Virus record (IMG/VR): IMGVR_UViG_3300042289_000700
Length of the DNA: 64,000 nt
Strand: one strand, 5' to 3'
Source of the DNA: an uncultured virus (IMG/VR IMGVR_UViG_3300042289_000700)
Lineage: Duplodnaviria; Heunggongvirae; Uroviricota; Caudoviricetes
Under the pieces are notes generated by a model that did no database searches, was not told the DNA's origin, and saw only the letters and a list, made by a program, of their open reading frames with translations. Below, one piece after another: positions 20,849-63,154 of this stretch (position 1 is its first letter; the number at the start of each line of letters is the position of its first letter). The position numbers and the translations under genes were made by a program.

Positions 20849-20897
20849 CGCACATTGAACGCCCGCTAACTTTAACAGTCTAACCAACCACAACTTT

Positions 20898-22730: not shown

Positions 22731-22837
22731 CGATACAGGAGCCCTGATGCCATTCCCAGAGCAGGAAGAAGGATTTGAGGATAACCCGATTAGACAATTG
22801 TTTGAACAAGTGGAGGACTTGGAGGTCAAAGAAGAAG

Positions 22838-25937: not shown

Positions 25938-25969
25938 GGGCGGGGGAGCAATCCCCCGTCCTTTTTTTT
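25938..25969 (+). terminator. Rho-independent terminator
   Basis: GGGCGGGGGA-GCAA-TCCCCCGTCC followed by T8. Confidence 0.85.
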
Positions 25970-25996
25970 GAACGTTCCACGATAAGCGGGGTCTAA

Positions 25997-27499: not shown

Positions 27500-27997
27500 T
27501 TACTTTTTGGAGGACATTGTGGTTTTTATCTGATCCACAATCTCTAAAAGCTCACTTACTGAAAGCTCGTTCTTAACAAGATTAACAATCCCTCGACACA
27601 GGACAATGTTGTCCTTCTCATATCCTCTATTAGAGTCAACTCTGTCTATTGACACGCATTGCCACCTTCTTGGACTTGGGCCAAGAATCATTGGTTGATC
27701 TGTGTAATAACACTTTCCGCCTTGTTTTTCCCACACCTCCTGAACGTCATCTACTGTAATGTTAAACGGAATACCACACTCCTTTGCTCTGGCCCTTGAG
27801 CCTGTTACTCTGTAATGAAGGTAGTTATTCTTGACCCATTCGTTTTGTTTTGCCTTTTTAAGCCTTTTCTCTTCTGGGCTTAATGAGTGATACTTTTTGA
27901 TTTGTTTCTGAACGTGGCACCTTTTGCATATGTAATTGTGATACGAGTAAAACTCCTCTGGATTTGTGGCCCCGCATTTACATTGTTTGTTTTTCAT
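27500..27997 (-). CDS. His-Me finger / HNH-type endonuclease, homing-like
   Basis: QGGKCYYT...SIDRVDSNRGYEKDNIVLC...N; own promoter TTGATT-16-TAAGCT; opposite strand to neighbours. Confidence 0.7.
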   Translation of the reverse strand: MKNKQCKCGATNPEEFYSYHNYICKRCHVQKQIKKYHSLSPEEKRLKKAKQNEWVKNNYLHYRVTGSRARAKECGIPFNITVDDVQEVWEKQGGKCYYTDQPMILGPSPRRWQCVSIDRVDSNRGYEKDNIVLCRGIVNLVKNELSVSELLEIVDQIKTTMSSKK

Positions 27998-28152
27998 AAA
28001 CAGAGCTTAACATGGCCAAGAAAAAAATCAAGGCCATTTGTTTTTCTAAAAACATTTTGTCATATATTTTTCGACAGGGGGTATTTTTATGGGTTGCTGG
28101 CCCGCGCCAAGCGAAGGGTGGGGTCAACACCCGTGTGGTGGGGTCTGTGCGC

Positions 28153-33681: not shown

Positions 33682-33924
33682 TGACCATAGGTTGCCCACT
33701 TCTTTTCCCCCGCCCGCTTTCTGGCTCCACGCCCCTTGCGGTCAGGCCGATTACGGATTTCCTGAAAGGTCAACCTTCGGGGTTTATCCCTCGGAGGGGA
33801 CTTGTATCTTTCCTCGGTGACATAGGGCGATTCGCCATCCTCGGCGGGAAAATCATTGATCGACCACGAAGATTTCATTGAACGTCAAGTAGGCTTTCAA
33901 TGTCTATACCACAACAAACCACAC

Positions 33925-34146
33925 ATGAAAACAGCAATCGGAACCTACAAACCCGCCACTTCCCTGCGTATTGGGATGGCGGACATCGTTAACCTTGAGA
34001 TGGTGCTGATGCGTCATATCACAAGGGAATTCAAGGACCGCAATTCGCGGCCCTTCATCAAGCCTCTTCAGCGTCTCGACATTCGGGATGCGGTCAAGGC
34101 CCTGCGCTCAATCAAAAACTCAAAGCTTCAATACCATGTGGACTGA
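33925..34146 (+). CDS. Early hypothetical protein
   Basis: Likely start MKTAIG. Confidence 0.6.
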   Translation: MKTAIGTYKPATSLRIGMADIVNLEMVLMRHITREFKDRNSRPFIKPLQRLDIRDAVKALRSIKNSKLQYHVD

Positions 34147-34354: not shown

Positions 34355-34550
34355 AGAACAAGTAAGATTTGTTTGCGACATGGCGCATGACCTCATGCTT
34401 TGGTTGCGGGGAACCCCGAAACAACAACCTTCGCTGCTGGCCCGCTCCATCCACTTCTCCACCAAGGCAGATTGGATGCAGCGACTGGTAGCCTACGGCC
34501 AGTTAGACAACTGGCTATCCAACAAACACAAAACCACAAATGAAAGCTAA
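34347..34550 (+). CDS. Early hypothetical protein
   Basis: Likely start MSKEQ. Confidence 0.5.
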   Translation: MSKEQVRFVCDMAHDLMLWLRGTPKQQPSLLARSIHFSTKADWMQRLVAYGQLDNWLSNKHKTTNES

Positions 34551-34691
34551 AATCGGAAAGTATAAACCATCAATCGAAACCATGCTGGCCCGCGCCAATG
34601 CGCGGAGCTACGGATTCAAACGCCCGCAACGCAAGTTCAACACCTACACCAAGGACGAGGTAACCCTGCTTGCCCGCAACCTGAAATCACA

Positions 34692-34985
34692 ATGAAAACC
34701 ATGAACCCACAAGAAAGAGAACAGAAAGCAATTGAATCCATGAACAGGTGTAGCAAGTTGAGAAACGAGCTTATCACCGAAACCGAAAACCTAGCAACCA
34801 TAGTGCAAGGCAGCAAACAGGTAATTCTGTGCGCGGCATTCACCCGAAAATGGAACTCCAACCATATCCAAAACTGGTGGAAGAATCGCGGCCCCAGCTT
34901 CATAGACAAATGGCGTCACGATGAGGCTTATGCTTCCGCCGCGTCCAAACTAACCGCTGAAGAACGCAAAGTTCTCGGAATCTAA
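34692..34985 (+). CDS. Early hypothetical protein
   Basis: Ends KLTAEERKVLGI. Confidence 0.65.
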   Translation: MKTMNPQEREQKAIESMNRCSKLRNELITETENLATIVQGSKQVILCAAFTRKWNSNHIQNWWKNRGPSFIDKWRHDEAYASAASKLTAEERKVLGI

Positions 34986-38581: not shown

Positions 38582-39263
38582 TCCCCACTACCTAATTCGC
38601 ACCTACGAAAAGGATCGGGATTGGCTGATGTATTGCTTGGCCTCCATTCGCAAGTGGGAACCCGACATCTCAATCACTGCCGTGGCTCCAGTTGGTCACG
38701 ATGTTGGATGTCCCGTGACTCATGTCGAACCAATGAATCCAGATGGGTATGTTGACCAACAATATACCAAGCTCAACGCCGATCTCTATGTGCCGTCTTC
38801 TGCCACCCATGTGATTCATATGGACTCGGATTGCCTAATGATTGGCAGGCTTTCGGGTATGATTGTGGATGGTAAGCCCGTGATGCTTAAAACCCCGTAT
38901 AGTCAGTTGGACGATCAGGCTGTGGTTTGGCAGGGTGTTACCGCCCACTACATTGGGTTTAATCCTGACTACGAATACATGAGGCGGATGCCACTTGTAT
39001 ATCCCATCGGGATATACGCCAAGGTTCGGGACCATCTTGCGGAACGCCATGGCCCTTGGGAGGAGTGGTTCCCTAAGATTGAAGGACGAAAACTAAGTGA
39101 GTTTAATATCCTCGGAGCCTATGCCGAACGTTTCATGGCGGAAGAATTCCATTGGATCGATACAAGTAAGGAAGAATTGCCCCCACTGGTGGCCCGTCAG
39201 GGGTGGAGTTGGGGCGGATTGGATGCGGTTCGGGCGGAGTGGAAGGCCCTCATGGCACAATGA
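38562..39263 (+). CDS. Glycosyltransferase-like protein (DUF6492-like)
   Basis: GYVDQQYTKL, HMDSD (DxD), SEFNILG. Confidence 0.6.
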   Translation: MTSSSFNPHYLIRTYEKDRDWLMYCLASIRKWEPDISITAVAPVGHDVGCPVTHVEPMNPDGYVDQQYTKLNADLYVPSSATHVIHMDSDCLMIGRLSGMIVDGKPVMLKTPYSQLDDQAVVWQGVTAHYIGFNPDYEYMRRMPLVYPIGIYAKVRDHLAERHGPWEEWFPKIEGRKLSEFNILGAYAERFMAEEFHWIDTSKEELPPLVARQGWSWGGLDAVRAEWKALMAQ

Positions 39264-40045
39264 ATCCTGATCTGTCGAGAAGTTCCCCCGTATGCAGGAC
39301 CGAACCCCCAGAGGGTTACAAGTGGGAACTCCCACCATTCAATGTGGCGTTTCAGTTCTGTGCCAAGGACTACACCCAAGCTTTGCGGGTCATCAAGTGG
39401 AGTCGGGATTTGGCCCACCAACCCAACGAACTCCATCTGGTCACAGACGAGGGGTTCATGTGTGATAGCTTGATTGAAATGGCCCGCTCCTCTTGGGGCT
39501 CGGTTGTTGTCCATCGAATCAAACCCTGTAGCTCGGCATGGCCCGCCTGTAACAACCATGCGTTTGCCGAAACCTGCAAACTAATGAAGGGACTGGGCAA
39601 GCCTTGGCTCCTCTGGGAGACCGATATGATCCCCGCTAGGCCAGACTGGCTACAGGTTCTGGAAAACGAGTATATCGAGGCTTCTCGGCCCTTTATGGGG
39701 GTATGGGTGGAGGCTTACGATATCCTCAATGGGGGAGCAGTCTACCCCTCGGACGTTATGGCTTGGTGTCCCCAGTTCTTTGCGGGATCGGCTATAATTC
39801 AGCCCGCCTTTGATTGTGCCATAGCCCCTGATGTAATTTGGTTTACCCATCCCTGCAACCACCTGATGGCTAATGTCTTCTTTACCAGACCCAACGGAAG
39901 ACCCTCTATTGCCATCCCGAATATTCCCAGTTGGAATAAAAGATTGTTCGACTGGACTGTTACCCACCATACCTGCTTGATCCATCGGGACAAGAAGGGT
40001 GAGACAATCGGTTTCCTGCGGGAGAAATTCGGTATTCGCGAATAG
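39260..40045 (+). CDS. Glycosyltransferase-like protein; paralog of 14244-15461
   Basis: WPACNN...WLLWETDMIP...GGAVYP...IHRDKKG. Confidence 0.5.
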   Translation: MNPDLSRSSPVCRTEPPEGYKWELPPFNVAFQFCAKDYTQALRVIKWSRDLAHQPNELHLVTDEGFMCDSLIEMARSSWGSVVVHRIKPCSSAWPACNNHAFAETCKLMKGLGKPWLLWETDMIPARPDWLQVLENEYIEASRPFMGVWVEAYDILNGGAVYPSDVMAWCPQFFAGSAIIQPAFDCAIAPDVIWFTHPCNHLMANVFFTRPNGRPSIAIPNIPSWNKRLFDWTVTHHTCLIHRDKKGETIGFLREKFGIRE

Positions 40046-40048
40046 CAA

Positions 40049-43000
40049 TTAGCGTCCGCTGCGGATAGCCTTGATTTCTTTCTCTTCTTCTTTGCGGGCT
40101 TTGATCATGTCGCGGCGACCCTTGTCCCACATTCTGGCAAAGTCGGCATCGTTGAATCCACCAAGATACAACCAATCACTAATTAGTGCGACATAGAGGA
40201 ACCTCTGTTCTTCGGGTGTGAACCTCTCCATCTCTTCTGGGTTCAGAACCATTTTGGTATTAAGGATGGACTTCTTGGCCTGATCCATGCCGATATCCAA
40301 AATGCCAAGGCTGAAAGCATTGTCGAATGAGCGATAGCGATAGAACGGTGCGCGTTCTTTTGCGTATTCATTAAACGACATGATATCACCGTCATCATCC
40401 AAGACAGATTCGCTTTCGTTTGCTGTGTCTATCATGTATTTGATATAGTTCATTCCGTCAATTGTGTAGCTTTCAACCATCTGCCCGAATCCGCCGACAG
40501 CCATAGTTGAAATTATGTCGCCCTGTAGTTGACGCCACTTCTGTTCAAATTCTTCTTTTTTCTTTTCCTCGTCTGGCTCTTCAACGTCAACCCCGAAAAT
40601 AGAGTAAAGAATCTTAACTCCGCCATAAGTAATTGCAGGAAGGACAAACCTCTTGGCCAATCCAAACATTACGGTTCCGCCGATTGTCGCGCTCAAATCC
40701 TTTACAGCAATAGCCTTTCCTTTCCAGTCGCCAGACTTGGTAAATATTTCCGTAAGATCTGAAGATACCCTAGCCCTAAATTGAACTCCGAAAGAGTTGA
40801 ACGGAACCAGAATGGCCTTTAATAAGTTCTCAGATCCAGTTTTTCCCTTTTGTGCGAACACCGCCATCTTGGTTGGATCGGAAGACCCCTGATAAATGTC
40901 GGTCATGTTCTCGGCATAAGCTGCCGCCCTCTTGTGGCCAGTATCATCGGACTTGATTAGGTTGGCGGCGTCCTCCCAATTTGTAAATCTGATTCCGTTC
41001 TTGGCCAGATATGCTCTATAAAACGTCATCCAAGTAGCGGCGGCAACCGTGAAATCGGAAACTTTTAGCGGAGTCATAAATTTGTCGGCAAATCGTGTGG
41101 CTGCTTCTTTGGCTTTAACCCAATTGCCTTCTGTGTAGTAACGCTCAAGGCGAGACTGCGCTCCCTCCATTTGGTTGATATATTTGTAGCCAGATGAAGC
41201 ATCTCCACGGCGACCAATTGAAAAAAGATCAAGGACGGGGCGGGCATTTTTAATGCTGCGAGGAGCCAAATGTTCGGCCATCAAATCCGCCCTACCAGTA
41301 GCCCCAACAGCAACCGTGACCTGATCTGCTGGCTGTCTGATCAATTGATAGGAGCCAGCCAAGGCGATTCTTGTGCCAATGTCTCGACCAAGGTTGGCTA
41401 TAACATCCACAGCCTTGCCGAAGAATCCTTCGTTAAATGAGCCTCTGCGCTCGCGTGAGCCCATAAGTCTTTCAATACGATCAGCAAAGAAGTCCAAATT
41501 AGCCTTACCTCCAAGTGCCTCTTCCGCCTGTGGAGTTTTAAGGAATGAGTAAATGCGCTGGCGGGCGGGGTTTGTGTAGGCCCTTGTAATCTGATCAGAC
41601 AAAGAATTGTAAGCATTCTTTCTGAGGTTGAGACCGATTTCTTTTGGTGTCCTTCCATCACTACCCATTGGTAGCTGTGTGTAATCAGAACGCTTGATTG
41701 TGTAAGAAGACTGTTTGGGAGATGAGGAAAGATTGTCGTAATACTTCTTTTTTCCTTGTAGCAAATCCAGCGCAGGAGTTGCGTTTGAATAAATAATCGG
41801 AAGATAGTTTGGCGTATTGTAATTGTTTGCTTGGTCGTTGAAATTCTCGTCAGAGACTTTCAGGAAATCTTTGTATTGCGGAAACAGGTCATCTTTGAGC
41901 CACATCAGCGATTCATAGTTAGCTGGGTATTCGCGCTTCAGATTTGAAAGCATTTGATCGACGGTGTCGCCATCAAGTTTCTGAATGAGTTGCTGAATGC
42001 GATCTGCCATTTGTATTTTGTCTTCATCACCAGACTTGCGAAGTTCAACAATATTTTGCTGCATAAGTCCTCTGCGTTGTGCCAAGGAGTCAGCCTCTCC
42101 TTTTGCTGGCACACTCTGGATAAGGTAGGCAACTATGCCCTCGGAAAGAATGCCATCTTGTGCGCGGGCTGCTCCTTTGTATTTCTTGTCCAGTTTATCG
42201 TAGAACTTTGCCATCTTCTCTTGAATCTCTTCAAGGGTTCGGGCTGCTTGTGTAAACCCAAGGTCAAGATCAACCATGCCCATAGCCTCGTAAAATACGG
42301 TCATAGCTTCTTTGCCAAAAGCATTACGGAAAGTGTCGGCAATCGACTGAAGTTCGGAGGCCCAAGACTTCAGTAGCTTCTTGGCCTTACGCGATCCAAG
42401 GGATGGTAGGATATTTGCCCATGCCCTGTTCTTGGTCATTGCTCCCGTGTTCTTGGCAAGGTCGCGGGCGGCTTGCTGTCCTTTGGCTGTGGCTACAAAG
42501 AATTCCGCGCCATTGGTCTGATTGTTATTAAAGATGATGTTATTCCCGATTCGGATATACGCCTGTTTTTCAGCGGAATCCAGAGACTTAACGTCAATGA
42601 CCTTCATGGAATCAATGAGCTTGCGCTGATCGGCTCTGAGTATTGTTGTGTCAACGCCCCTCAAAGCTTCTTTTACACCAGACGATTTTTCATTTAAGAT
42701 CCCTTCGATGGCCTCGCGTTTGGCATAGCTTTCCAATGCATCCATGATGTCTTCGGCGTCCAAGAACCTCTGCAAATCGTTGACGCTAACTCCGTATTTT
42801 TCAGCCAGCTTTTCATTGTCTTCGACATCAAACTCGGCCTTCGCGGAAACAACCTCGTCTTCTGCCGCCGAAAGGTAGCTCTCCATTTCGGCATCGGGCA
42901 CAACCACATAAGCCTCGGATACCACGGGCTTGAAGCTGCGGAGATAGTGGTTTACCACATCGGAAAACTCACGGGGATCGTTTAGAAGGTTGATTCCAAC

Positions 43001-46000
43001 ATTGCCAATAGCCTCCAAAACAAACCGCTGGGGTGCGGCAATAGAATCCCGCTTGGAAAGTTCTTTGGCCCTCTTCTGTGCGGCTTTGGCTTCACGCAAA
43101 TCCGCATCGTAATTTGTGTTAGCCATAACCCTCTCGGCATAGGCCATAAAGTTCTCCATGGACTTCTCGCTAGTCCAGATGACTTTGGCTGCACGTTTGG
43201 CTAGGGCTTGGGCCTGCTTCGCCCGCATAGGCCCGCGCAACTCCAGAGCTTTGATGGCCTCTACTACGGCATCTGCGGTCTCCTGCTGGGCTTTCTTGGC
43301 CTCGCGGGTCTCCCGTGCTTTGAGTCGGATCTGCTCTTTGAGGGCGGTCTTCTCTGGGACTTGGAGGATGACGGGCTTAACTCGGACTCCCGTAGTGGCA
43401 TCAATCACCCTTTGAAGGACAGTTCTTTTATTTTTGGGATCAACATCTTTCGGGATTTCCATGCCCTCTTGAAGTCCCTCCAAGGTTACCCCCGTCTCAG
43501 TTTCAAGGACGGCTTCGGCTATTTGCTGTTGCTTGTCGTATTGCTTGGCAATAGCATCAGCCACCTTCTTGGCATTGGCTGGCGTGAGGTTGGTATACTC
43601 CACCACCATGTCTTGGAGTTGGCGGGTATCTCCGCCCTGATCCATCCAGACAGAGGCTATCTCGCTGATCTTGTAGGTGGGTTTGTTTTCGGGGTTTGGC
43701 TTGCCCTCGGACGCCGTATCCACCTTGGCCATAGACTCCTTCATATTAGAAAGAGTAGATGCTTCGGGGCTTCCCTCGGAGAAGGTGGGGATGGCGTCTT
43801 CTCTGCGGGATTCACGGATAGAGTAGCGGATGTCGGGCGTTGTCTGCTGGAATCTTTCGGAGAGCGGGATGACATTGCCTTGATCGTCGTAGGTTACGGG
43901 GTTGGCGGATTTGATTTGATTTATATTTTTTACAACAGCCCATTGCGAACCATGCGGAAACGTCAGAATTGAAACATCATTTGTGTTTTCTTTTGGCCAC
44001 TGAACCTGAGATCCCTCTAATGTCTTTGTAAGCTCTCTTGCTATACCTTCATCAGCCACTCCGCTTTGTGAAAAAACGTAATATCGTTTTGGTTCATCGT
44101 CTTTTGAATACCTTCTTGAAAGACTTTTCTTTTGCGCCAACCATAGTGGTCTTTTTATTCTTTCTGGTTCTGCTGATTCAGCGCGATACCAAGCGACACC
44201 TTTTAAAGGAGGATAAACTACGCTTCCATAGTCGGTATTATCGGCATTTGTTCCACGAACATCAATTCCATCAAATCCAAGTTCCTGCATTAAATATGTT
44301 GATGGAGTTCTAAATCCATCATTTTGATTCTGATTAAACATGCGTTCAATCCGAATCATAGCTTCGCGAATTTTCTGTTCGCTGTTTCCAGAAATTTGAC
44401 GCCCTATCGCAATGTCTATTAAAGACAAAATTCTACGCCCATCGAATCTTGGTTCTTTAAATTTTAATTTTTGTTTTTTCCTTATTTCTTCATTAAAAAT
44501 CCTTAATCTGTCGTGAAATTCCATTGCCAGTGATTCTGGCTTGGCCATATTTAATCCAGATAAATCTATATTTACAACTGGCCTTCCCTCTCTACCAAAT
44601 CCAACTTCTTTTTTTCCAAGAAAATATGTTCCAGTTCCAAAATGACCAGTTCCCCTTCCGTCCATTCTCTTTAAAATTGTATCTCTAGCTGTTCCAGCAT
44701 CTCCGTAATGGTAAGCCCCAGTGTCTTCAGATGTTATTACAGCCCTAATATTTGAGGGATCATTGGGTTCTATTGCGCCTGCTTGTTTAGCCACCGCATC
44801 CACCATCTTCTGTAATTCTTCCCTGTTGGATTCGGGGTTCTTCGCCAACTCCAAGAACCGCGCATTCTCTTCGGGTGTGACGAAAGCCCGACCCTCTCTA
44901 GCCTCTCCCTGCACATTGATAAATTTGTTGTATGCCTGTTTGAATTCGGCGTTGATCTCGGAGACATTGCGGGCCGCAATGTATTCGGCGGCTCGGCGTG
45001 TCAACTTATAGCCCAGCTTGTTGGCCCATGCCTCAACACGCGCCACAGCCCGTTCAAACCAGCGTCTGCCCCTCCATCCTTCGGCTAGTAGCTCGACGGC
45101 TCTAGCGGCTTCCTCGGCGGTTCTGGCCTTCTCTGCGTAGCCCAACCTAGTGATGGCATCATTGATTTCTTTTCTTTCTTTCGGGGTCAACCCCGCAACC
45201 AAACGATTAAGTGCTCCATCGGCATTGGCACTTTCTGCAATCTCATGGTTTAGGACTCGCTCTATAGCAGCATCGTCTTTTAAGGCTGCGGCGTTTAGCT
45301 CAATGGATACTACCTTCCCGTCTCGGATGATGGTGCGGCCCTCAAAGGAAGCATCGGGCTGATTAACCACCGATACGATCCCACCCCGCCCAAATCCCAA
45401 AGACTCCAGCTTGGTCGCTACTGCTTCTGGCTCCATGCCAGCAGGGCGCGGCATCTCAATCCTCTTATACCTTATATCTTCTTCTGTGGGCTGGAAGCGT
45501 TGGCTGGGAGGGATGATGTTGCCGCGATTGTCGCGAGTAATAGCATCTGCCGATTTAACTTGAGACGGCTTAAATACAACCGTGGCGTAGTCGCCAATAA
45601 TAATTGCTGTCGCCTTATTTCTTTCTCGGAAAATTCTAATCCAATCTTTTGGCTTACCAGAATTTTGCCACTCTTTAACCTGTTCTGGGGTTAATGTTAT
45701 TGGATTGCTTCCTAGATCAGCATACGCATTAATGACTGTGGTTGGATATTCTCCAGAGCTAGGAGTTGCCATCTTCTTGTCAAAGGCCAACCAGATTCCA
45801 GTGAGTTTTTTCCTAAACCTATTGATTACCGAAGCTTCTGTTCCGTGAAAAAGCGGAAGAACTTGGTAGCCACCCCGCCTAGCCGCTTCATCCACAATGC
45901 GCTGTTGAGTTTCGGTGTCGCCGCGATCCACCGCATCCAGATACTCTCTGTCTTGTTGGGTAATTGGAGCGGGTTCCCTGCGGGATTCTCTTACTTCGGG

Positions 46001-49000
46001 GGCGGGGGACGGGGTTCGGCCTCCAGCCAGAAGAAGGTCTCCTTCTGTAGCCAACTCAAATGCTGATCTGGAAACAACGTCCAGCACAGATCCAGCTTTC
46101 ACTTCAATGCCTAGGATTCGGGCGATGGCGTCAATGATCGTTTGCCAGACAGTCTTGCCTCCCTCCATCTCAATCTCGTTGAGGGCTTTTTGGAATTCGG
46201 GGTTGCTCAGTGCTTCGGAAAGGAACTCATCAATATTCCCAAGACCGTATTCAAATCCGTATTCGACAACCGCATCGGGATCGTTGGCAACGGGAGGCTT
46301 TTTATCCATTATCTGCCAAGATAGGCTTCCGTTGGACTGGTCAAATCCTTTACCGCGCAACTTGCGTTTTGATGGGTGGAGTCCAACCTCTTCTTTCGGA
46401 ATTGTTATCTTTTCCAAATCTGACTGCGCGACAACCACATCATATCGATTGCCGTCTTGTCGCTTTACATCAACTTCGGTTATGCCGCTTTCTTTGAGGT
46501 ATTTGAGGACTCTTTTGACGTTCGTCATTCCCTCGACCTCAAACATCCTGCCGCCTTCGCGCTGGGCCTTGGTTGGATTTTGAACTCTGCCAATAACCCC
46601 CTTATAGACAGAACTTCTCCAAATTGTTCCGCCTCTACTTCCACGAAACGGGCCTTCACCCCACAAGGTTTCAGCAGCACCCATCTTTTCCGCTGCCAAG
46701 ACGTATCCGCGAATGATGTCGCGAAGCGGCTTCGGAAGCGTTTTATCAGCGATGGCTTTGTCTAGTGCTTTCTTGTATCGCTTGCCACGCAAGTTGTCGG
46801 ACGATATTTCTTTGGGAAGTTTGTAAACCAGTATTGCATGGATGATCTCATGCAGTGTTATGCGGACATCAGCAGCTTGGTTCGGATGCATCCGTATTGT
46901 TCTGTCCGCTGTTTCGTAGAACGATCTCCCCTTCAACCTTCCCTTATCTCTAGCGGGCGTTGTTCTGGTAAACCTTGTGATGTCTATAGCAAAGTTTATT
47001 TCTGGATTTGTTTTCGCCGCATCCAGAATGGTTTGAGCCAATTGTGCGTATGGGGTGTTGCCTTTCGCTATAACCTCCAATACTTGAATTGCCCTTGAAG
47101 AAGGGCGCCCCTTCTCTGTCAGGGAAAGATTGGCAACGGCTTCGTCCGTATATTTAGTTTTTGTTGTGGGGGGAGTTATGGGTTCTTCTGGCTCAACAGC
47201 AGCTTCCGTTGGCTTCACTTGAGGCACAAGATTCTCCTGTGCTTTCGCCGCATCCTCGTTGATGACCAAGATGTGTTTGACGGGGCCAGCATCGGTATCG
47301 TGCATCATTGCCACCGCATCGTATCCATTCTTGCGTAGCCATTGGGCAAACAGAGAGCCACGCACATCTTCTTTTGTCCTCTCGGAAAGTCCGCGCTGGA
47401 TCAAAGCCGCTCTCGTCCTGTCCATATCGTTGCGGAAGTATTGCCATGTGGGCTGTTTGTCATCGGGGTCTCCGACAATATCCAGTCCGTAGCGATTCAC
47501 TTCATTAGTTACCTCCCTCGGCACATCTTTCCATTTCCAGTTTTCTGGCAGGGTGTAGCCCATCTCTTTGGCGACCAACTCATACATTTTGGCGAAGTCG
47601 GCAGTAGTGCCCATTTCAGTGATGTCGAAAACCTTGCGGGGGCGAATCTTCTTGGAGACTACTTGACCTTCAGTGCGGGGGTCGAAGCCGTGTAGACTCT
47701 GAAACATTTTCATTCCCTCTTCTTCACCGAATCGGTCTTGATAGTCTTTTAGAATTCGGGCATCCCGCTCCAGATATGCCCTAGCATCCTGCTCACTTGT
47801 GCTGTAGTAGGTGAACGGGGCAAGAGCCACATCATCTGGCAGTCCAACCAGTTCGCCAAAATCCCGAATCCCAGCAAGCTGTCTTCCCCCTTCAAGAGCG
47901 GGTAGTTCACCACGATACACTGTTACCTCTTCGCCAACCTCCTGTGGTGCGGGTTTCGGGCGATACACCATAGGAATTCCCATTGTTTTTGTCGGGCCTT
48001 CGGGGTCGCGCTCCCATCCAAGAGTCTTATAGAAGTTAAAGAGTTCCCTTGGCGTCATGTATCCCTGTTCGCGTATCTCTTGAGGAGTGCGATATTGTCT
48101 GTCTGCTGGCGCGGTTAAGGCTTCTCCCTTGAGTGTGACATTGTTTTCATCAGCCCAGCGGAGCATGTTAGTCATTGCTTCGCGCCCGATACCCTGACGG
48201 CGTTCTTCTCGCGGAACCCTGAATGATTCCAAATATAAAGTATTCTCGTCAGACTTGGTGGTATCGATATCAAACCTGACGGGAACACCCCGAACATCCA
48301 TCTCAAATGATTTAAACTCTGGTAGCTCCGCAAGATCTTCGCGTTCTTTTGGTTGAACAATTTGAGATAGTTTCGCCTCTGCTGTAGTTGGCTCTCCAGC
48401 GGCGACCTCTTGCGGAGCGGGCGGCACATAGATATCTCCATCCAGTGTCCAGCCTGCTGGCATACGCACACCTGTTCCTACCTGATCTACCCCGATACGA
48501 AGACCCTTCGCGATGGCTTCGGCTACTACTTCGTTTGCTCCTGTGTCGATCTGGATCTTTCGGGCTTCGGGGTTCAACCTTGGGCGCTCGGCCTCTGGCA
48601 ACGCCTCTAGACCCGCTTGCGTGATCACTGGTTGGCCATTGTATAGCTCGACTAGTCCTTGACCGACCAACCCCGAAACATCCTCTTCTGTTTGTTCTGC
48701 TCTTGCTACTCGGCGTAGAGGTTCAAGATTCGGGGTTTCGGGGGTCGGGGTCACTTCGGGAGCCACCTCGACGGGAGGAGTCACTGCGGGGGCGGCTTCA
48801 AGAGTCGGAGCGGCTTTGGTGTAGTTGATGATGGATGTAGGCTCGTTGGTTACGGGCGCATTGTCTTGTGGGCGAAGTAAGTATTCTCCTGTTTCGGCGT
48901 CCTTGTGAATAAAGTCGGATCGACCAACAATTCTGTCTGCTGGGATTGGCTTGAACGAACGAACATATGAATCGCCCTGAATAAAGTTGAGATCCAGTCC

Positions 49001-50980
49001 AGTAGGATCGATAGCAAGAACAACACCCGTTTCTCCTCGCGGAAGATAGTAGGTTGCCGTGGATGTTTTCGGCGTTAGGTTTATTCCTTCGTCTGCCGTG
49101 ATGGCCAAACGCATATCAGAGTCGATTTGTCCATTGGCGAGAATGCGCTCATAGTCTTCTCTGGTAACGACACGGTATAGGGTGTTGGGCTGGCCTTCTG
49201 GCGGGATTGCCTTGGTGATTGTGCCGACATTCTCATTATATCCAACCTCTTCGCCCTTGCGCCATTTTTTGCCTTCGGTTAGAGGCTCTTCGGTTGGGCG
49301 CAATGGAGCCAATGCTTGAAGCGGTGCAAGAAACTGTTCCTCCTCTCGGCTGATGTTTTTTGAATTGGGATGGCGGGCGGCAACCTCTGCGCGAACGAGA
49401 TTTTGCCTTGATGCTGTTCTTTCGGTATACGCCGCGACCACTTCTGGGCTGTCTTCGGGCAAATCCCGAACCCCAGCGACAGCCTCTTTGGCTATCCTGT
49501 CCCGCTCTTGTGCGGCTCTTAAATCTTGCTCCTCCTTCGTTCCCGTGGCGACTTCTACGGCTGGCTGCGGCTCTGCTACTACTGGCTCTACTACTGGCTC
49601 TACAGGGGCTACAGCGGCCTCTGGCGTAGGCGTTACGGGAGGAATGGGCTCAACAGGGGGCAACCCCGAAACAGGAGGCTCTTCTTCTAGTTCTATTCCT
49701 GCTGCTGCGGTAGCTTCTTCTTGGAGTCGGGCCACCTTCTCATCTGGGGTTTCTTCAAGCGTTTGATTGATCTGTTCTTCGACAGCAGCGGCAGAGGCGG
49801 GAGCGTTACTTTGTTTAGCTTCTTCTGCGGCCTTTTGGGCGTCTCGCAATGCCACTACTTCGCGGGCATCACGTTGAGCCACTCTTGCGCTAATGCCACC
49901 AGCCCCGCCACCAAGAATAGAACCAAGGGCTCCTTCAAGGGTGGCTTGACCGACTACCCCGCGCATAGGATCAACATCAAATCCTTCGCGACCAACGGCT
50001 ATATTGGCAGCAAGTCTCTCCTGACCACCTTGAAGTGCCTCAGTGACGAACTCCATTGTCCCATCCTTCAACGCACCTCGCACAAATCCTGTGCGAAGCA
50101 CCTCTTGAATGGCTTGCTCTGAAACTTGTTCCGCCGTTTCCTTGCCAACCTTACGGGCGATCAAGCTACGGATGGCCGAATCAGCACCAGTGGTGGATGC
50201 CGCCACTCCAAGCCCGACCCCCAAAAGGATCTGATCAAGGTTCTTCCCGTTGTAGGACTGGGCTTCCATTGCTGCTTTTTCGGCTTTCTCCTCGTCCACC
50301 CCGCTATTAATTAGCTGATCTTTGACCGCACTATAAATTTCTCCTTTGACAATACCACCTCCAACCGCCCCACCCTGCACACCTTGAAGGATGGCAATAC
50401 CACCCTTACTTAGTCCAACAGCTTTACCCACACCCGCTGTGGCGATGAAGGGAATCAACGAACCGATACCTTGGGAAACCAGATCAATGGGGGCAACGGT
50501 CAACGCCTTGAGACCAGCCCCGATTTCAGCCAACACTCCTTGACCTTCAGCCTCTTGCATGATGCGGCCAATCTCTTCTTGGTCCTGCTTGGCACCCGCC
50601 GAAAGCAGACTCCTATACCACTCTGAATTCTTGGCAAGGTTTTGTGATACCGCATTGTCAGCGCCGAAGGCATCAGTAAATCCTTTGACTACATCATTGA
50701 TACTAGCACCGATATTAAGCAATGGATCAGCAACAGGACGAAGGAAGCTTTCTTCTGGTTCTGGCTCCTCCTTGGGCATCTCAAACCCAAAAAGTTCCTT
50801 GTCGCCAACTGGCTCAAGGCCAAGGGCCTCGTAATCTATTTCTGGCGTCTCGGCTTTCGGGGTCTCTTCTGTTTGAAGCCCGAATCCAAACAACTCTTCG
50901 TCACTAACAGGCTCTAGGCCCAACGCCTCATAGTCAATGGACGGCTGTTCAGTCGTTGTCTCATCTTGCGGGAGAGCCAT
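40049..50980 (-). CDS. Giant polyvalent virion/ejection protein (3643 aa) with ART-like, GNAT and zincin domains
   Basis: RRQGIG (GNAT); HEIIH...EFLSEA (zincin); LYRVV, VYRGE..YYST, LFHGT, YHYG..GTYF (ART-like). Confidence 0.75.
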   Translation of the reverse strand: MALPQDETTTEQPSIDYEALGLEPVSDEELFGFGLQTEETPKAETPEIDYEALGLEPVGDKELFGFEMPKEEPEPEESFLRPVADPLLNIGASINDVVKGFTDAFGADNAVSQNLAKNSEWYRSLLSAGAKQDQEEIGRIMQEAEGQGVLAEIGAGLKALTVAPIDLVSQGIGSLIPFIATAGVGKAVGLSKGGIAILQGVQGGAVGGGIVKGEIYSAVKDQLINSGVDEEKAEKAAMEAQSYNGKNLDQILLGVGLGVAASTTGADSAIRSLIARKVGKETAEQVSEQAIQEVLRTGFVRGALKDGTMEFVTEALQGGQERLAANIAVGREGFDVDPMRGVVGQATLEGALGSILGGGAGGISARVAQRDAREVVALRDAQKAAEEAKQSNAPASAAAVEEQINQTLEETPDEKVARLQEEATAAAGIELEEEPPVSGLPPVEPIPPVTPTPEAAVAPVEPVVEPVVAEPQPAVEVATGTKEEQDLRAAQERDRIAKEAVAGVRDLPEDSPEVVAAYTERTASRQNLVRAEVAARHPNSKNISREEEQFLAPLQALAPLRPTEEPLTEGKKWRKGEEVGYNENVGTITKAIPPEGQPNTLYRVVTREDYERILANGQIDSDMRLAITADEGINLTPKTSTATYYLPRGETGVVLAIDPTGLDLNFIQGDSYVRSFKPIPADRIVGRSDFIHKDAETGEYLLRPQDNAPVTNEPTSIINYTKAAPTLEAAPAVTPPVEVAPEVTPTPETPNLEPLRRVARAEQTEEDVSGLVGQGLVELYNGQPVITQAGLEALPEAERPRLNPEARKIQIDTGANEVVAEAIAKGLRIGVDQVGTGVRMPAGWTLDGDIYVPPAPQEVAAGEPTTAEAKLSQIVQPKEREDLAELPEFKSFEMDVRGVPVRFDIDTTKSDENTLYLESFRVPREERRQGIGREAMTNMLRWADENNVTLKGEALTAPADRQYRTPQEIREQGYMTPRELFNFYKTLGWERDPEGPTKTMGIPMVYRPKPAPQEVGEEVTVYRGELPALEGGRQLAGIRDFGELVGLPDDVALAPFTYYSTSEQDARAYLERDARILKDYQDRFGEEEGMKMFQSLHGFDPRTEGQVVSKKIRPRKVFDITEMGTTADFAKMYELVAKEMGYTLPENWKWKDVPREVTNEVNRYGLDIVGDPDDKQPTWQYFRNDMDRTRAALIQRGLSERTKEDVRGSLFAQWLRKNGYDAVAMMHDTDAGPVKHILVINEDAAKAQENLVPQVKPTEAAVEPEEPITPPTTKTKYTDEAVANLSLTEKGRPSSRAIQVLEVIAKGNTPYAQLAQTILDAAKTNPEINFAIDITRFTRTTPARDKGRLKGRSFYETADRTIRMHPNQAADVRITLHEIIHAILVYKLPKEISSDNLRGKRYKKALDKAIADKTLPKPLRDIIRGYVLAAEKMGAAETLWGEGPFRGSRGGTIWRSSVYKGVIGRVQNPTKAQREGGRMFEVEGMTNVKRVLKYLKESGITEVDVKRQDGNRYDVVVAQSDLEKITIPKEEVGLHPSKRKLRGKGFDQSNGSLSWQIMDKKPPVANDPDAVVEYGFEYGLGNIDEFLSEALSNPEFQKALNEIEMEGGKTVWQTIIDAIARILGIEVKAGSVLDVVSRSAFELATEGDLLLAGGRTPSPAPEVRESRREPAPITQQDREYLDAVDRGDTETQQRIVDEAARRGGYQVLPLFHGTEASVINRFRKKLTGIWLAFDKKMATPSSGEYPTTVINAYADLGSNPITLTPEQVKEWQNSGKPKDWIRIFRERNKATAIIIGDYATVVFKPSQVKSADAITRDNRGNIIPPSQRFQPTEEDIRYKRIEMPRPAGMEPEAVATKLESLGFGRGGIVSVVNQPDASFEGRTIIRDGKVVSIELNAAALKDDAAIERVLNHEIAESANADGALNRLVAGLTPKERKEINDAITRLGYAEKARTAEEAARAVELLAEGWRGRRWFERAVARVEAWANKLGYKLTRRAAEYIAARNVSEINAEFKQAYNKFINVQGEAREGRAFVTPEENARFLELAKNPESNREELQKMVDAVAKQAGAIEPNDPSNIRAVITSEDTGAYHYGDAGTARDTILKRMDGRGTGHFGTGTYFLGKKEVGFGREGRPVVNIDLSGLNMAKPESLAMEFHDRLRIFNEEIRKKQKLKFKEPRFDGRRILSLIDIAIGRQISGNSEQKIREAMIRIERMFNQNQNDGFRTPSTYLMQELGFDGIDVRGTNADNTDYGSVVYPPLKGVAWYRAESAEPERIKRPLWLAQKKSLSRRYSKDDEPKRYYVFSQSGVADEGIARELTKTLEGSQVQWPKENTNDVSILTFPHGSQWAVVKNINQIKSANPVTYDDQGNVIPLSERFQQTTPDIRYSIRESRREDAIPTFSEGSPEASTLSNMKESMAKVDTASEGKPNPENKPTYKISEIASVWMDQGGDTRQLQDMVVEYTNLTPANAKKVADAIAKQYDKQQQIAEAVLETETGVTLEGLQEGMEIPKDVDPKNKRTVLQRVIDATTGVRVKPVILQVPEKTALKEQIRLKARETREAKKAQQETADAVVEAIKALELRGPMRAKQAQALAKRAAKVIWTSEKSMENFMAYAERVMANTNYDADLREAKAAQKRAKELSKRDSIAAPQRFVLEAIGNVGINLLNDPREFSDVVNHYLRSFKPVVSEAYVVVPDAEMESYLSAAEDEVVSAKAEFDVEDNEKLAEKYGVSVNDLQRFLDAEDIMDALESYAKREAIEGILNEKSSGVKEALRGVDTTILRADQRKLIDSMKVIDVKSLDSAEKQAYIRIGNNIIFNNNQTNGAEFFVATAKGQQAARDLAKNTGAMTKNRAWANILPSLGSRKAKKLLKSWASELQSIADTFRNAFGKEAMTVFYEAMGMVDLDLGFTQAARTLEEIQEKMAKFYDKLDKKYKGAARAQDGILSEGIVAYLIQSVPAKGEADSLAQRRGLMQQNIVELRKSGDEDKIQMADRIQQLIQKLDGDTVDQMLSNLKREYPANYESLMWLKDDLFPQYKDFLKVSDENFNDQANNYNTPNYLPIIYSNATPALDLLQGKKKYYDNLSSSPKQSSYTIKRSDYTQLPMGSDGRTPKEIGLNLRKNAYNSLSDQITRAYTNPARQRIYSFLKTPQAEEALGGKANLDFFADRIERLMGSRERRGSFNEGFFGKAVDVIANLGRDIGTRIALAGSYQLIRQPADQVTVAVGATGRADLMAEHLAPRSIKNARPVLDLFSIGRRGDASSGYKYINQMEGAQSRLERYYTEGNWVKAKEAATRFADKFMTPLKVSDFTVAAATWMTFYRAYLAKNGIRFTNWEDAANLIKSDDTGHKRAAAYAENMTDIYQGSSDPTKMAVFAQKGKTGSENLLKAILVPFNSFGVQFRARVSSDLTEIFTKSGDWKGKAIAVKDLSATIGGTVMFGLAKRFVLPAITYGGVKILYSIFGVDVEEPDEEKKKEEFEQKWRQLQGDIISTMAVGGFGQMVESYTIDGMNYIKYMIDTANESESVLDDDGDIMSFNEYAKERAPFYRYRSFDNAFSLGILDIGMDQAKKSILNTKMVLNPEEMERFTPEEQRFLYVALISDWLYLGGFNDADFARMWDKGRRDMIKARKEEEKEIKAIRSGR

Positions 50981-56213: not shown

Positions 56214-56853
56214 TAGCCTCCTCTGGTTGCGGGGTTTTGAGAGACTCGGCCTTGCTTGCCCCATAGCCCAAATCTTCGGGAGTGTAGGGCTGGATGGGCA
56301 TCTTGAAGGTGTGGCCAGAGCGGTCTGCTTGGATGAAGAGCGAGGTGGCTATGCCCTGACGATGCTCATTCGGAAGGTCTAGCTCAATAGCAATATCGTT
56401 GGCCTTCTTGACGCACAGCCTCATCAGGTTTGCCGCCTGACAGAGGAACACCTTTACTTCGCGGTCTTTGGGTTCGGGATTCTTGACGGCCTCTCCCGTG
56501 GGCTTCTGGGGCTCGCGAGGGGTGTCATTCACCAACGTGGAGCCCTTGACCATCGCGGCTTGGATCTCCATCGTAGCAGTTCCCTGCTTGTCGTTGCCCG
56601 AAGCAATCAAGACTACGGTCTTACCGACATACTCTTTAAAAGAGTCTTCGATATCTTTGTTTGGGATAAAATAAGTGTGGTCTACTCCGCCGACTTCGAC
56701 GGTCACCAGATGGAACTTCTTTTGATCGGCCTTGCGGACAATGACCTTGGGAACTGATTTGATTGTGACCAGCTTCGGCCCGTTCTTGACTAGGTCAGAG
56801 TGGTTAAGGCTGGGCGTCTTTTCGCGGTTTTGATTGGGTTTTTGGAATGACAT
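56206..56853 (-). CDS. Hypothetical protein, possible ssDNA-binding/annealing
   Basis: Beta-rich N-half; upstream of the exonuclease; likely start 56853. Confidence 0.5.
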   Translation of the reverse strand: MSFQKPNQNREKTPSLNHSDLVKNGPKLVTIKSVPKVIVRKADQKKFHLVTVEVGGVDHTYFIPNKDIEDSFKEYVGKTVVLIASGNDKQGTATMEIQAAMVKGSTLVNDTPREPQKPTGEAVKNPEPKDREVKVFLCQAANLMRLCVKKANDIAIELDLPNEHRQGIATSLFIQADRSGHTFKMPIQPYTPEDLGYGASKAESLKTPQPEEAND

Positions 56854-56913
56854 ATAGGTTTTGTTGTTCTCTATCTCCGACACTCGGCTTTGTCAAACGT
56901 TCAAAGTATTTTT

Positions 56914-56956
56914 AAAAAAGGCGGGGGGCAGGAAAAACCACTAACCTACCCCCCGC
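56914..56956 (-). terminator. Rho-independent terminator
   Basis: GCGGGGGGUAGG/CCUGCCCCCCGC 12-bp stem followed by CUUUUUU on the minus strand. Confidence 0.75.
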
Positions 56957-56998
56957 GAACTATCACACATGAAAACGAGGGACAACATATACCCTCAG
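56914..56998 (-). ncRNA. Candidate small RNA
   Basis: Promoter TTGCAA-16-TAGGTT (57032-57005); 5' hairpin; unpaired GUUUUCAUGUGUGAUAG; terminator 56956-56914. Confidence 0.55.
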
Positions 56999-57045
56999 AC
57001 CCCGAACCTACCACAATCGTTCAATCTTGCAAGGGGAAAATGACC

Positions 57046-57074
57046 TTGCTAGGATAGGTCTTTTAGAGTAGGTT
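57046..57074 (+). promoter_or_regulatory. Promoter TTGCTA-17-TAGGTT, leaderless to ATG 57082
   Basis: Read directly. Confidence 0.6.
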
Positions 57075-57081
57075 CTCCGAA

Positions 57082-60000
57082 ATGGCAGAGCAACCACCCC
57101 TCTCTAGAATTCATGTCGTTGGCTATTCGGCCAATGACCGCGATTTTCCGATCCTTAATCTGGTTTTAGATCCGCGTGTTGCGGGCTATCAGGTTCCCAA
57201 GGATCTTTCGGCCTGTCCCGATAAACGCTATCCCAACCATGTATTTACGGGAGCCCAGCCGATCTCTGGGGATCAACGTGTCCGCCATGTCTGGGAGATT
57301 CTCCCCTCTCCTTATGTCCCCTTTACCCGCTATGATGATGACCTCGGTCCTGTTCAGGGGCGGAGGCGGTCTGTTAAAAATGAGGGGCAAGTCGCAAGTC
57401 TAGCTGCTGATAAAAGAGTAACCTACGAAGCCCGAGAAGGATCGGCTATTGTCTATACCGAACTGGAGGAGTCTTGGTCGGTTGCCACTGACGAGGATGG
57501 TAATTCCCTTTTTCCTTTTAAGGATCGGGATTTTTATGATGCCTCACGCGGCCCCGTCCAAGAACGCCGCCAACTTTTTGTCCCCACAGGAGAGGAGGTT
57601 GGCTCTTTGGAGAACATCAACGGAGTCATCACCCAGACCAGCTACGAGCCCTACAACGAATTTCTTTCGGTCAAGATTGTCCAGACCTACAAGGTGGACG
57701 GCCCACAACTGATTGGTAAGGCCACGGACAATGACGGCCAGCTAGTCACGGTTACCACCCAGCGCAAGGGGGCCAATGGATATATCCCTCCGAATCCAAC
57801 CGCAACCAGAACGGTTGAGGTTAACCGCGAGGACGCCGAAGCCCTAATCGAACGGACTGTCGATACCCCCGAAGTTTTTAAAGCCAACACGTTTTCTGTT
57901 GAACGCCCCGACCCCATTCCCCAGAAGTTCCGCGTAGCAGTCCCAATCCAGTCCTCACAAGAGATTGTTGAAGGAATCGCCGTTACGCCAACCCTTGAAG
58001 AGGGGGAGATCTCTAAGAGCGAAGAACAGCGTAATAAGTTTATCAAGCGGGTGTCTTCTACTTCGCGGGATCAAGCCGTTCTACCTCAAACACTTACTGG
58101 CAAAGCGACCAACAACGAAAGACAGGAGGTTACAGTTACTGAGACCTTGCAGTTCGGCAACACCGACGAAGGCCCAACCGCAACAAAGACAATAGAGTCT
58201 GAGGCATTGGGTGATGGAAACTATGTCATTACAAAGACAGAGGTTCCCGAAGTTTTTGGAGCCGAAACCTATCGCAAGATCCGCGAAGACATTACTCCGC
58301 AAAAATTCAAAGCCGCCCAAGAGGACCTTACCACCGAACAGAATGTTGCTGGTATTGCCGATTCAAACATTAGCCTAGCAACTGGAGAGTTCGCCAAGAG
58401 CGAACAACAGGTAAACAAATTTGTAAAACGGGTATCGACAACATCGCGAGCCATTAGTGAGGCTGTTGTTTTGGTTGAACGAGTCTTGACCAACGAGGGG
58501 CAGATAGGCACCAGAACCCTGCGACTGCAAGTGGGAGACCAGACCTTTACCCCATCGGCAACCTTGGTGGATGCCAATGTTGAGGCTTTGGGAGACGGGC
58601 GCACAGTCAAGACGGAAGTTGTAGTGCCAAATGTGTTCACTGGGAAATCTGTAGTCAAAACCAAGGTTGACCTTACCCCTGAAAAATTCCGAGCCGCGCA
58701 GCAAGACACCACCACGGAAGAGAGCATAGAGGGGGCCGTCAATCCCGCCATCAACTTGGGAACTGGAGAATTCCGAAAATCCGAGCAGCAAGTTACAGAA
58801 TTTGTTAAAAGAATTTCATCCACCACTAGGGACATCAGTGCTTCGACGGACCTAACTGAAACAGTTATCACCAATCAAGGACAGGTGGCTACCCGCACGC
58901 TCCGTCTTTCGGCCACACCGCAAGTCATTATTCCTGACGCACTTTTGGTGGACGGATCTATCGAAGCTTTGGGTGATGGCAGGACGATCAAAACTGAAGT
59001 AAGGGTTCCAGAGATTTTTGATGAAAAATCAAATACTATTGAAGCTGTCATTACTGTCCCCGAAAGGTTTTTGGTTAACAGCCCGATTAGCAGTCAGGCA
59101 ATAGTTGAAGCTGGAGACAATACTTCAGTCGAGCTTTCTGGCGGATTTATATCCCAACAGAAACAAAGGATTTCAGACTTTAAGATACGGACAATTAATA
59201 GGTCGCAAAATATTGATCCTTCGGAAATTTTAAGAGGCGCTGATTACGACGACACCCTTGATGCTCAAATTCCTTTTGAAGAATATATATCTGGTACAGT
59301 TCCTAGTGGTAAATGCGAAGTTGATCCAATCGGTGGAGGTCGTCATCTTGTTAAAGAGTATGACACTATTGGACTTGAACAAAAATTAGATGCAATCAAA
59401 TACGTTTTCCCGTCTCGCTCAACAATCACGGGCGTCCCCCCAGTGTTGCGTAATTTCAAGGTTGAATGGGAAAAGACGGAAATAGACTCTGATTCTTCGT
59501 CTAGTTCATCTGGAGTTGGTGATGGACAAACTGGATCTGTTTCTGGATCTTCCAATTCAAGCTCTACGGCAACGGGATCTGTTACTCCGATATTTGTTAT
59601 TGATTTGGAAGAGGTAAATACTTCAAATATTCCGACAACATCTTATTTCTTTTTCTTAAAATATCCAGTCACAACAGCTAATATTATAAGTAAAATTGGA
59701 GGATCTGTTCAACTTTGGCCCATTTTTAAACCCAAATCGCACATCATAACCGCAACTGGACAAAAACTTAAGGTTGATCTTGGTAGAAATATTTCATTCA
59801 ATTCAAACTGGGGTGAAAACTCTTCTTCAAATTCAATATCTCTTGGTCAAACAAGGGGGATTGAAACAACAGATCAGATTTTTACAGTAAGAATTCCTCC
59901 GTGTCTTCATGGTTCATTTTCGGATATTAACAAAGAAGAAAAACAAGAAGTTAAAGCTTCTGTTAGCGCGACAGTAAATATTAGGGGAAACGTAACCGAG

Positions 60001-63007: not shown

Positions 63008-63154
63008 TTAGTCTTGGGTTTCTCCGCAGGTTTTGCATCTGAGGATATGGACTACCCCATGATCAATCCGTTCAATCTTTTCCGATCCACAGTAGAAACA
63101 GGTCTTGGATTGCGGCTTGCGGTAAACCTTTTTCTTCTTTTTTTCTTCGCTCAT
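63008..63154 (-). CDS. Small Zn-ribbon protein
   Basis: CFYCG...CKTCG. Confidence 0.5.
   Translation of the reverse strand: MSEEKKKKKVYRKPQSKTCFYCGSEKIERIDHGVVHILRCKTCGETQD

Follow-up and report, generated by a model that had tools for sequence, protein, structure and literature searches.

Several phages encode antisense RNAs that cover a ribosome-binding site, among them Sar of P22, C4 of P1/P7 and OOP of lambda. These RNAs are short, possess a promoter and a terminator of their own and repress by pairing at or near the start region of a message; they arise in cis or by processing beside their target, and each acts on one defined gene. On the host side, GcvB is an RNA of ~200 nt, and C/A-rich elements at ribosome-binding sites were reportedly, to go by its title, the subject of a study by Sharma et al. 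in 2007. The G/U-rich seed R1 of GcvB pairs with most GcvB target mRNAs (PMC9299463), and a lambda small RNA (sRNA) has been proposed to act post-transcriptionally on other messages (bioRxiv 10.1101/2024.10.31.621285). Here we describe an sRNA gene on the minus strand of the window, by which we mean the whole stretch of 64,000 nucleotides that was analysed (IMG/VR record IMGVR_UViG_3300042289_000700, an uncultured virus of the Caudoviricetes). An earlier note on this DNA had placed there a candidate sRNA with an unpaired seed between two hairpins and had proposed that it could silence a whole class of early genes.

In its predicted layout the RNA resembles GcvB (RF00022), with a G/U-rich single-stranded seed exposed between structured domains and an intrinsic terminator at the end. 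Pairing with C/A-rich sites, as by R1, may be a further likeness: gene starts are enriched for CA-repeat tags just before the AUG, to which the seed would be complementary. The RNA differs from GcvB in being ~85 nt long and phage-encoded, whereas GcvB sits on the host chromosome, in having a seed that includes the anti-start-codon CAU, and in having targets that are candidates only. At the Rfam gathering score the RNA had no match; with E values up to 10 there were six weak matches, none of them meaningful and GcvB not among them, so that the covariance model search excludes membership of the GcvB family. ARAGORN found no tRNA or tmRNA at the locus. The best reading of the sequence is a new family of phage sRNAs, with no match to the RNA families described in Rfam. 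Unlike Sar, C4 and OOP, the lake-phage unit has no conserved gene opposite it, and any target must be in trans. It also differs from the trans-acting sRNAs of the lambda type, which belong to cultured enterobacterial phages and have experimental targets; the lake-phage RNA has no sequence likeness to them and comes from uncultured phages. What is known of regulatory RNAs in lytic phages comes from a few cultured systems; the present gene, complete from promoter to terminator, is retained by all known members of an uncultured group of ~70-kb lake phages.

Conservation and strand of the sRNA gene

Relatives were gathered by a search with the 215-aa protein encoded next to the unit, which gave 64 IMG/VR loci (46–100% identity). 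The unit was present in all 64 and stood directly upstream of the 215-aa gene in 62 of them (50 unique sequences). In L051 and L013 an inserted HNH endonuclease gene lies between the unit and the 215-aa gene; a covariance model built from the main clade matched the unit of L051 with 94.2 bits, that of L013 with 16.5 bits (E 0.55; complete by eye) and that of the window with 19.5 bits (56916..57003, minus strand). On the opposite side of the unit, L023 and L041 have an HNH-like gene whose end directly adjoins the -35; this call rests on a 3' end resembling the L013 and L051 genes, the frame not having been translated. Since the unit is intact despite insertions on either side, the module from -35 to terminator is kept whatever is inserted around it. 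Insertions of HNH endonuclease genes (2348..3000 in L051, 2073..3000 in L013) were seen on either side of the unit at four of the 64 loci in all, and that of L013 follows a duplicated start of the 215-aa gene.

The minus-strand promoter of the earlier note, TTGCAA-16-TAGGTT with an upstream TG, is present as described (Table 1) and conserved in the relatives. TTGCA[AT] stands in all 50 unique relatives anchored, and TTGCA[AT]-16-TAnnnT in 45 of them, of which 42 carry TG at -15/-14 and 43 read TAnnTT; the remaining five have TAGATA, TAAATA or CAAGAAT at -10. Within the main clade (30 unique sequences) the hairpin arms had a mean pairwise identity of 0.96, the -35 of 0.94, the open segment that follows hairpin 1 of 0.90 and the -10 of 0.83, with 0.50 in the promoter spacer (18 variants) and 0.52 in the first 7 nt past the -10. 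A generic consensus scan called neither promoter nor terminator at the locus, because the -10 agrees with TATAAT at only three of six positions and the loop of the terminator exceeds 8 nt; conservation, not consensus scores, therefore carries the case for the gene.

Across clades hairpin 1 takes the form UGAGGG/CCCUCG, GGAAGGC/GUCUUCC, GAGG/CCUC, GGAAG/CUUCC or GGAGAC/GUCUCU. On an alignment fitted to the model, which for that reason leans towards structure, 97.6% of the cells assigned to pairs were paired, versus 83.2% in shuffles and 50–61% in slid controls. Double changes, on both sides of a pair, were found in 17 of the 18 model pairs (none of 500 shuffles as high), comprising 6 of the 7 pairs of hairpin 1 and all 11 of the terminator, where 98.9% of cells were paired. 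This alignment replaced an all-clade MAFFT alignment of 44 sequences, on which RNAalifold found 0 pairs because the clades are misaligned in it.

The strand-specific G-U pair that had been seen in the terminator is confirmed, one U-G pair of the window's stem becoming a C-A mismatch when read on the plus strand. The minus-strand fold reaches -36.9 kcal/mol (z = -3.27; none of 200 shuffles as good), and the plus-strand fold of 56916..57004 reaches -29.7 kcal/mol. In all 45 sequences compared the sense strand folds more stably (-35.5 vs -23.4 kcal/mol), because of frequent G-U pairs. The ~85 nt of the predicted transcript contain no open reading frame (ORF) of substance, again as the note had it. 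Presence at 64 of 64 loci, covarying helices, a drifting spacer and a conserved open segment establish a stand-alone minus-strand sRNA gene that is real and under selection, strand included. What the relatives keep is structure and an open core, not the plus-strand peptide.

Table 1. Predicted elements of the sRNA gene, its best candidate target in the window and the features bordering the locus.
Feature	Position	Strand	Basis or remark
-35 hexamer TTGCAA	57032..57027	minus	palindromic with the plus strand
Extended -10, TGg + TAGGTT	57013..57005 (T57013, G57012; TAGGTT 57010..57005)	minus	16-nt spacer after the -35
Predicted transcript, ~83–86 nt	56999..56914	minus	from promoter/terminator geometry; start put 6–8 nt past the -10, 3' end in the U-run
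Hairpin 1, UGAGGG/CCCUCG, 6 bp	56997..56992 with 56981..56976	minus	10-nt loop, centroid fold
Open segment UUUUCAUGUGUGAUAGUUC	56975..56957	minus	between hairpin 1 and terminator
Seed as given in the earlier note, GUUUUCAUGUGUGAUAG	56976..56960	minus	sequence
Terminator stem GCGGGGGGUAGG/CCUGCCCCCCGC, 12 bp	56956..56945 with 56932..56921	minus	followed by C and U6 (56919..56914)
Best candidate target, CACACAUGAAAAC	33920..33932	plus	start of 73-aa gene 33925..34146
Gene of 215-aa OB-fold protein	ATG at 56853	minus	one border of the intergenic gap
Gene of 1033-aa protein	ATG at 57082	plus	other border of the gap
Promoter of another class, TTGAAC-N16-TGTCGG	56877..56904	minus	for the 215-aa OB-fold gene; outside the sRNA
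Divergent promoter-like site TTGCTA-17-TAGGTT	57046..57084	plus	7 nt to ATG 57082 of the 1033-aa gene

The open segment and a second lineage

From 5' to 3' the predicted RNA would consist of a hairpin, an open G/U-rich segment and an intrinsic terminator. UGUGUG is the sole stretch invariant across all clades. The invariant core is a (UG)n repeat of variable length, with CAU 0–4 nt before it in 46 of 50 unique sequences and, in most clades, GUUUU in front. The window and main clades, L060 and the second lineage described below retain the longer GUUUUC, which L011/L014, L021, L054 and L055/L057 lack. Mean unpaired probability of the core was 0.67 versus 0.36 for the rest of the RNA, the core being the more open part in 40 of 42 sequences; in L055 and L057 the UG repeat is placed in a hairpin loop.

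A pattern scan of IMG/VR gave 54 matches, of which 36 were family members, 12 the start of a coding gene in an unrelated 35-kb phage and two another unrelated site. The last four (contigs L104, L119, L148 and L150) represent a second lineage with a unit of the same build: a TTGACA-16-TGTAGTTT promoter, a hairpin GGAGAC/GUCUCU, a different terminator and an identical UGUUUUCAUGUGUGU. There the unit adjoins portal, scaffold-like and capsid-like genes, and the 18.8-kb contig of this lineage has only three ORFs in common with the family. Its scan for pairing gave nothing at a start, and an 80-aa protein common to both lineages has a start that is non-complementary to the seed. A wider pattern, TGTTTTCATGTGTGT, occurred in at least 119 stretches; among the 80 of these that were fetched there was no lineage beyond the two. 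The same RNA in lineages with little else in common implies that it is mobile or has been selected independently, and its occurrence in every known group member together with its reappearance in the second lineage indicates strong selection.

The second lineage also has a related HNH gene. As for the coding gene start among the matches, it is found in L100 and 11 near-identical loci (record G016, 21890, minus strand) of a 35.5-kb phage and reads ..TGTCACACATGAAAACGAG (MKTRIEIYEIA...); 17 nt of it agree exactly with the antisense sequence of the seed region in the window, which is about the chance level for the pattern used.

Predicted pairing with start regions

The reading we prefer, tentatively and with somewhat less than even confidence, is that an ~85-nt phage sRNA acts in trans by G/U-rich pairing at a few start regions composed of CA repeats and AUG, host messages being equally possible targets. 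A host-type promoter, TTGCAA-16-TGnTAGGTT, would drive the non-coding RNA; its open segment would pair with the C/A-repeat leaders and adjoining AUG of a few messages without Shine-Dalgarno sites, and such pairing would block initiation, as R1 of GcvB does on C/A-rich sites. The leading candidate among phage targets in the window would be gene 33925, perhaps together with its paralogue 34540. Transcription, action in trans, pairing as the way of acting and target identity are what we infer from the letters of these genomes. If the seed does act on CA-repeat starts, it would show RNA control of translation in hosts without Shine-Dalgarno sites and provide a compact handle for testing such control.

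Target tests covered the window and nine related records, with genes called by a longest-ATG-ORF rule and each record's own seed paired with every start. This crude rule gives some wrong starts (the G002 orthologue of 33925 was corrected by hand), and related genomes are not independent samples in the pooled tests. Over 794 non-redundant starts from the ten genomes there was no Shine-Dalgarno signal between -20 and +14, with G at 11–16% at several upstream positions. The start context is instead one of A/C-rich leaders, with C at 38% at -2 and A at 53% at the first base past the AUG. A few genes have GGAG-like sites, e.g. before 16787, 17386 and 33065. CACAC or ACACA within 12 nt before the AUG marks 25 of 789 non-redundant starts, one of them an artefact (the antisense of the sRNA gene called as an ORF in G010), versus 70 of 8257 internal AUGs (odds ratio 3.8, p = 3e-7). 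Pooled top-5% pairing energies fell on 59 of the 789 starts versus 425 of the 8257 internal AUGs (odds ratio 1.49, p = 0.0048).

The CA-tagged subset of the window consists of gene 33925 (aaaccacacAUGAAAAC) and gene 62703 (minus strand). At the start of the former, CACACATGAAAAC is a 13/13 complement to the seed, with a predicted pairing energy of -20.1 kcal/mol, in the top 1% of window starts. Its orthologues in G002, G003 and G007 keep ..CCACnnAUGAAAAC, with energies of -19.1, -15.3 and -11.6 kcal/mol. What survives of the original proposal is therefore a narrower statement, again from sequence, that the (UG)n-CAU seed appears to mirror CA-repeat-plus-AUG tags on few genes, 33925 being the best example in the window. 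Genes 33925..34146 and 34540..34695 (plus strand) are N-terminal paralogues (MKTAIGTYKP / MKAKIGKYKP) with a common aaaccaca-AUGAAA leader.

A number of results weigh against this reading. In the window the top-5% pairing energies include 5 of 91 starts and 51 of 990 internal sense AUGs (5.2%), and the pooled enrichment comes mainly from G003 (16/113) and G008 (9/88). By Mann-Whitney tests of starts versus internal AUGs, nine of the ten genomes gave p = 0.24 to 1 (window p = 0.26), G003 alone being significant (p = 0.00027). The comparison with shuffled controls that the earlier note suggested was borderline in the window, where 5 of 100 dinucleotide-shuffled seeds matched the mean and 2 of 100 the top 5, and failed to reach significance in four relatives (84/13, 16/26, 82/34 and 24/31 of 100 for mean/top 5). 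That shuffled seeds do about as well in these relatives means that any U/G-rich RNA would pair fairly well with A/C-rich leaders. Within the 33925 family there was no compensatory change across orthologues, pairing declines to the low value in G007, and nothing in the family matches the U-to-A change that the seeds of G006, L042 and L049 carry. Among 49 orthogroups present in at least five genomes, none keeps complementarity across clades; the best (geometric-mean percentile 0.049 in six genomes) is that of a 200-aa protein whose leaders are CA-rich, and it is absent from the window clade. Four of the 50 unique sequences lack the CAU, and the core of the window's own RNA has an unpaired probability of only 0.46.

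Single long matches are weak evidence too, as the strongest complement in the window illustrates. It comprises 14 contiguous nt (39468..39455, minus strand; -23.5 kcal/mol) on the non-coding strand of gene 39260..40045, whose mRNA has UUCAUGUGUGAUAG, 14 nt identical to the open segment and encoding the conserved FMCDS. We rejected 39455..39468 as a target because the match is a coincidence inside a coding gene, the peptide DEGFMCDSLIE being conserved with synonymous changes in G006. Two further candidates were set aside: the site GCGCAUGGUGACAG, conserved in G002, G005 and G006, is internal to a coding region, and a DUF932-like gene pairs well in G002 and not in the window.

Alternative explanations

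Given that the seed is kept in two lineages with almost no shared genes and that no phage target is conserved, host messages are as likely a target as phage ones within the preferred reading. The stricter version, in which the RNA acts on host messages (or a host RNA) only and the matches to phage genes are incidental, draws on the same two facts, the open segment being the best conserved part across the lineages. We regard it as doubtful: the CAU-(UG)n spacing varies from 0 to 4 nt among clades, as would be expected of a loosely defined class of sites more than of a single fixed site in the host, and neither the genome collection nor the isolated phages contain relatives from which to place a host. 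Were a host message targeted, the RNA would mark a host function that both phage lineages need shut down.

Extending pairing in the other direction, the (UG)n-CAU seed might be a general 'anti-enhancer' that mirrors CA-repeat tags replacing Shine-Dalgarno sites in a shared host, an idea that we rate as rather unlikely. If true, a set of CA-tagged messages, from phage and host alike, would be shut down by the phage at a defined time, and the logic of GcvB would have a phage-encoded counterpart in organisms that do without Shine-Dalgarno pairing.

The exposed UG repeat could also be a docking or sponge site for an RNA-binding protein of host or phage. An invariant element that is a simple (UG)n of variable length and not a fixed heptamer would suit such a role, as would its position in a hairpin loop in L055 and L057 and the absence of a conserved RNA target in the orthogroup screen and the 33925 family. 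There is no candidate protein, and both the CAU beside the repeat in most sequences and the enrichment of CA-repeat tags at starts fit pairing; we hold protein binding to be unlikely, a little more so than the two preceding ideas.

The class-wide model of the earlier note, one trans-acting RNA covering the AUGAAAAC start of many early genes and silencing them all, had been built on matches that are all at the positions given for them. ATGAAAAC occurs 12 times in the window versus 3.41 expected (none of 100 shuffles reaches 12), one of the 12 being the sRNA locus itself. The sites include 29354, 29625, 32442, 32651, 32823, 33925, 34692 and 34990 on the plus strand and 17583 on the minus strand, and most of them fall where small genes of the plus strand begin, at 29–35 kb, with bulged complements at 29625 and 34692. 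Five of the ten best-pairing window starts fall at 32.6–35 kb, and the window seed does better than most shuffles. Three findings leave the model unsupported: starts in the window pair no better than internal AUGs; AUGAAAAC starts, 6/91 in the window and 6/114 in G003, are rare in other relatives (1/103, 2/108, 2/85, 2/95 and 0/88) that keep GUUUUCAUG or a close variant; and gene 34990, which has an MKT start, has orthologues beginning with MIH, MTH or MAR. In G002–G006, moreover, exact or one-mismatch copies of CACACATGAAAAC are found only at the sRNA gene, apart from one CACCCATGAAAAC each in G002 and G006, and the GUUUUC part is lacking in several clades. The sRNA is not a regulator of all MKT-start genes, and silencing of the early class as a whole is highly improbable.

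Equally improbable is a by-product in cis, in which the unit serves as leader or attenuator of the 215-aa OB-fold gene or as a promoter-terminator pair insulating the divergent operons. The terminator U-run does abut the -35 of the OB-fold gene promoter, and in several window-clade relatives it is interrupted, making read-through possible. Cis roles are nevertheless unlikely: in L051 and L013 the unit has stayed whole although an HNH gene parts it from the OB-fold gene, and in the second lineage it stands next to genes of the capsid module. The OB-fold gene is served by a conserved promoter of its own, and conservation extends to the sequence of the open segment and not to structure alone.

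The alternative that the earlier note itself had offered, a plus-strand micro-protein (MKTRDNIYPQ...; a 24-aa ORF at 56969..57043 with a start context typical of this phage) whose likeness to other starts reflects ordinary start context, deserves almost no credence, given an ORF of 3 to >24 aa with only MKT/MKTGRR common within clades, no ATG in 4 of 50 unique sequences, hairpin changes that compensate at the RNA level, no conserved plus-strand promoter and the better minus-strand fold throughout. CRISPR-repeat mimicry and a replication-primer role were considered and dropped as the hairpin sequence is not conserved and the neighbours differ between lineages.

The phage and the surroundings of the locus

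Few genes of the window, a phage genome, could be recognised: a DnaB-like helicase, a small-terminase-like helix-turn-helix protein, GP88, DUF932, an FkbM methyltransferase, a PD-(D/E)XK-type exonuclease, a CHAP endolysin and a 3643-aa ORF. The sole Pfam match of this last ORF (40049..50980, minus strand) is a weak one to GNAT acetyltransferase (E 9.3e-5). Lake water is the label on the DNA runs that contain the stretch 56300..57700. No RNA run was listed as containing it; of four runs aligned to it, three metatranscriptomes gave no reads there and the fourth is probably DNA of relatives, a result that speaks neither for nor against transcription. Related records are ~70 kb long with direct terminal repeats; G001, the record nearest to the window, is without the sRNA region. 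Among isolated phages no relative of the window was found by DNA search or with its 613-aa protein, and the DnaB-like helicase has <36% identity to anything there. Two scans of a bacterial genome collection found no relative of the 215-aa neighbouring protein. This protein has an N-terminal OB fold weakly like SSB and PrgE (mean pLDDT, the predicted local distance difference test score, 71.7); its best Foldseek match had E 0.01, with none at or below 0.001.

The sRNA unit sits in a 228-nt gap (56854..57081) between the divergent genes of the 215-aa and the 1033-aa protein. The promoter of the OB-fold gene is conserved in the relatives and belongs to another class, which we take to resemble promoters of extracytoplasmic function (ECF) sigma factors. 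TTGAAC-N17-GTC occurs 8 times in the window versus 0.56 expected (none of 100 shuffles as high), while TTGAACG by itself is not enriched there (16 vs 9.65 expected; 4 of 100 shuffles as high). Other sites of this promoter-like class, TTGAAC-N16/17-(T/G/A)GTC(T)(A), lie at 20855..20880, 25968..25993, 19516..19541 and 22802..22827 on the plus strand and at 19424..19449, 16053..16078 and 63050..63075 on the minus strand, and one at 33878 (plus) has an extra spacer base. Such sites stand before the OB-fold gene and genes 20898, 25997 and 33925, and are conserved in relatives. A 159-aa protein (20898..21374, plus strand) contains three helix-turn-helix units including Sigma70_r4 (E 4e-11), and its own gene is preceded by a TTGAAC-N16-AGTCTA site; it could be the reader of this promoter class.

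On the other side, the sRNA promoter and the divergent TTGCTA-17-TAGGTT site stand back to back, and the main-clade counterpart of the latter, TTGCCG-17-TAAGTT, is conserved. A second promoter-like site with similarly short spacing to a gene, TTGATT..TGTTAAGCT (27997..28031, minus strand), precedes gene 27500..27997. As only 6–7 nt lie between each of these sites and the ATG, the messages of the 1033-aa gene and of gene 27500..27997 may be leaderless. The 13 bp that separate the back-to-back -35 boxes (57033..57045; GGGGAAAATGACC on the plus strand) read GGAAAAT(G/C)A(C/T)C across clades and may be a shared activator or UP-like site.

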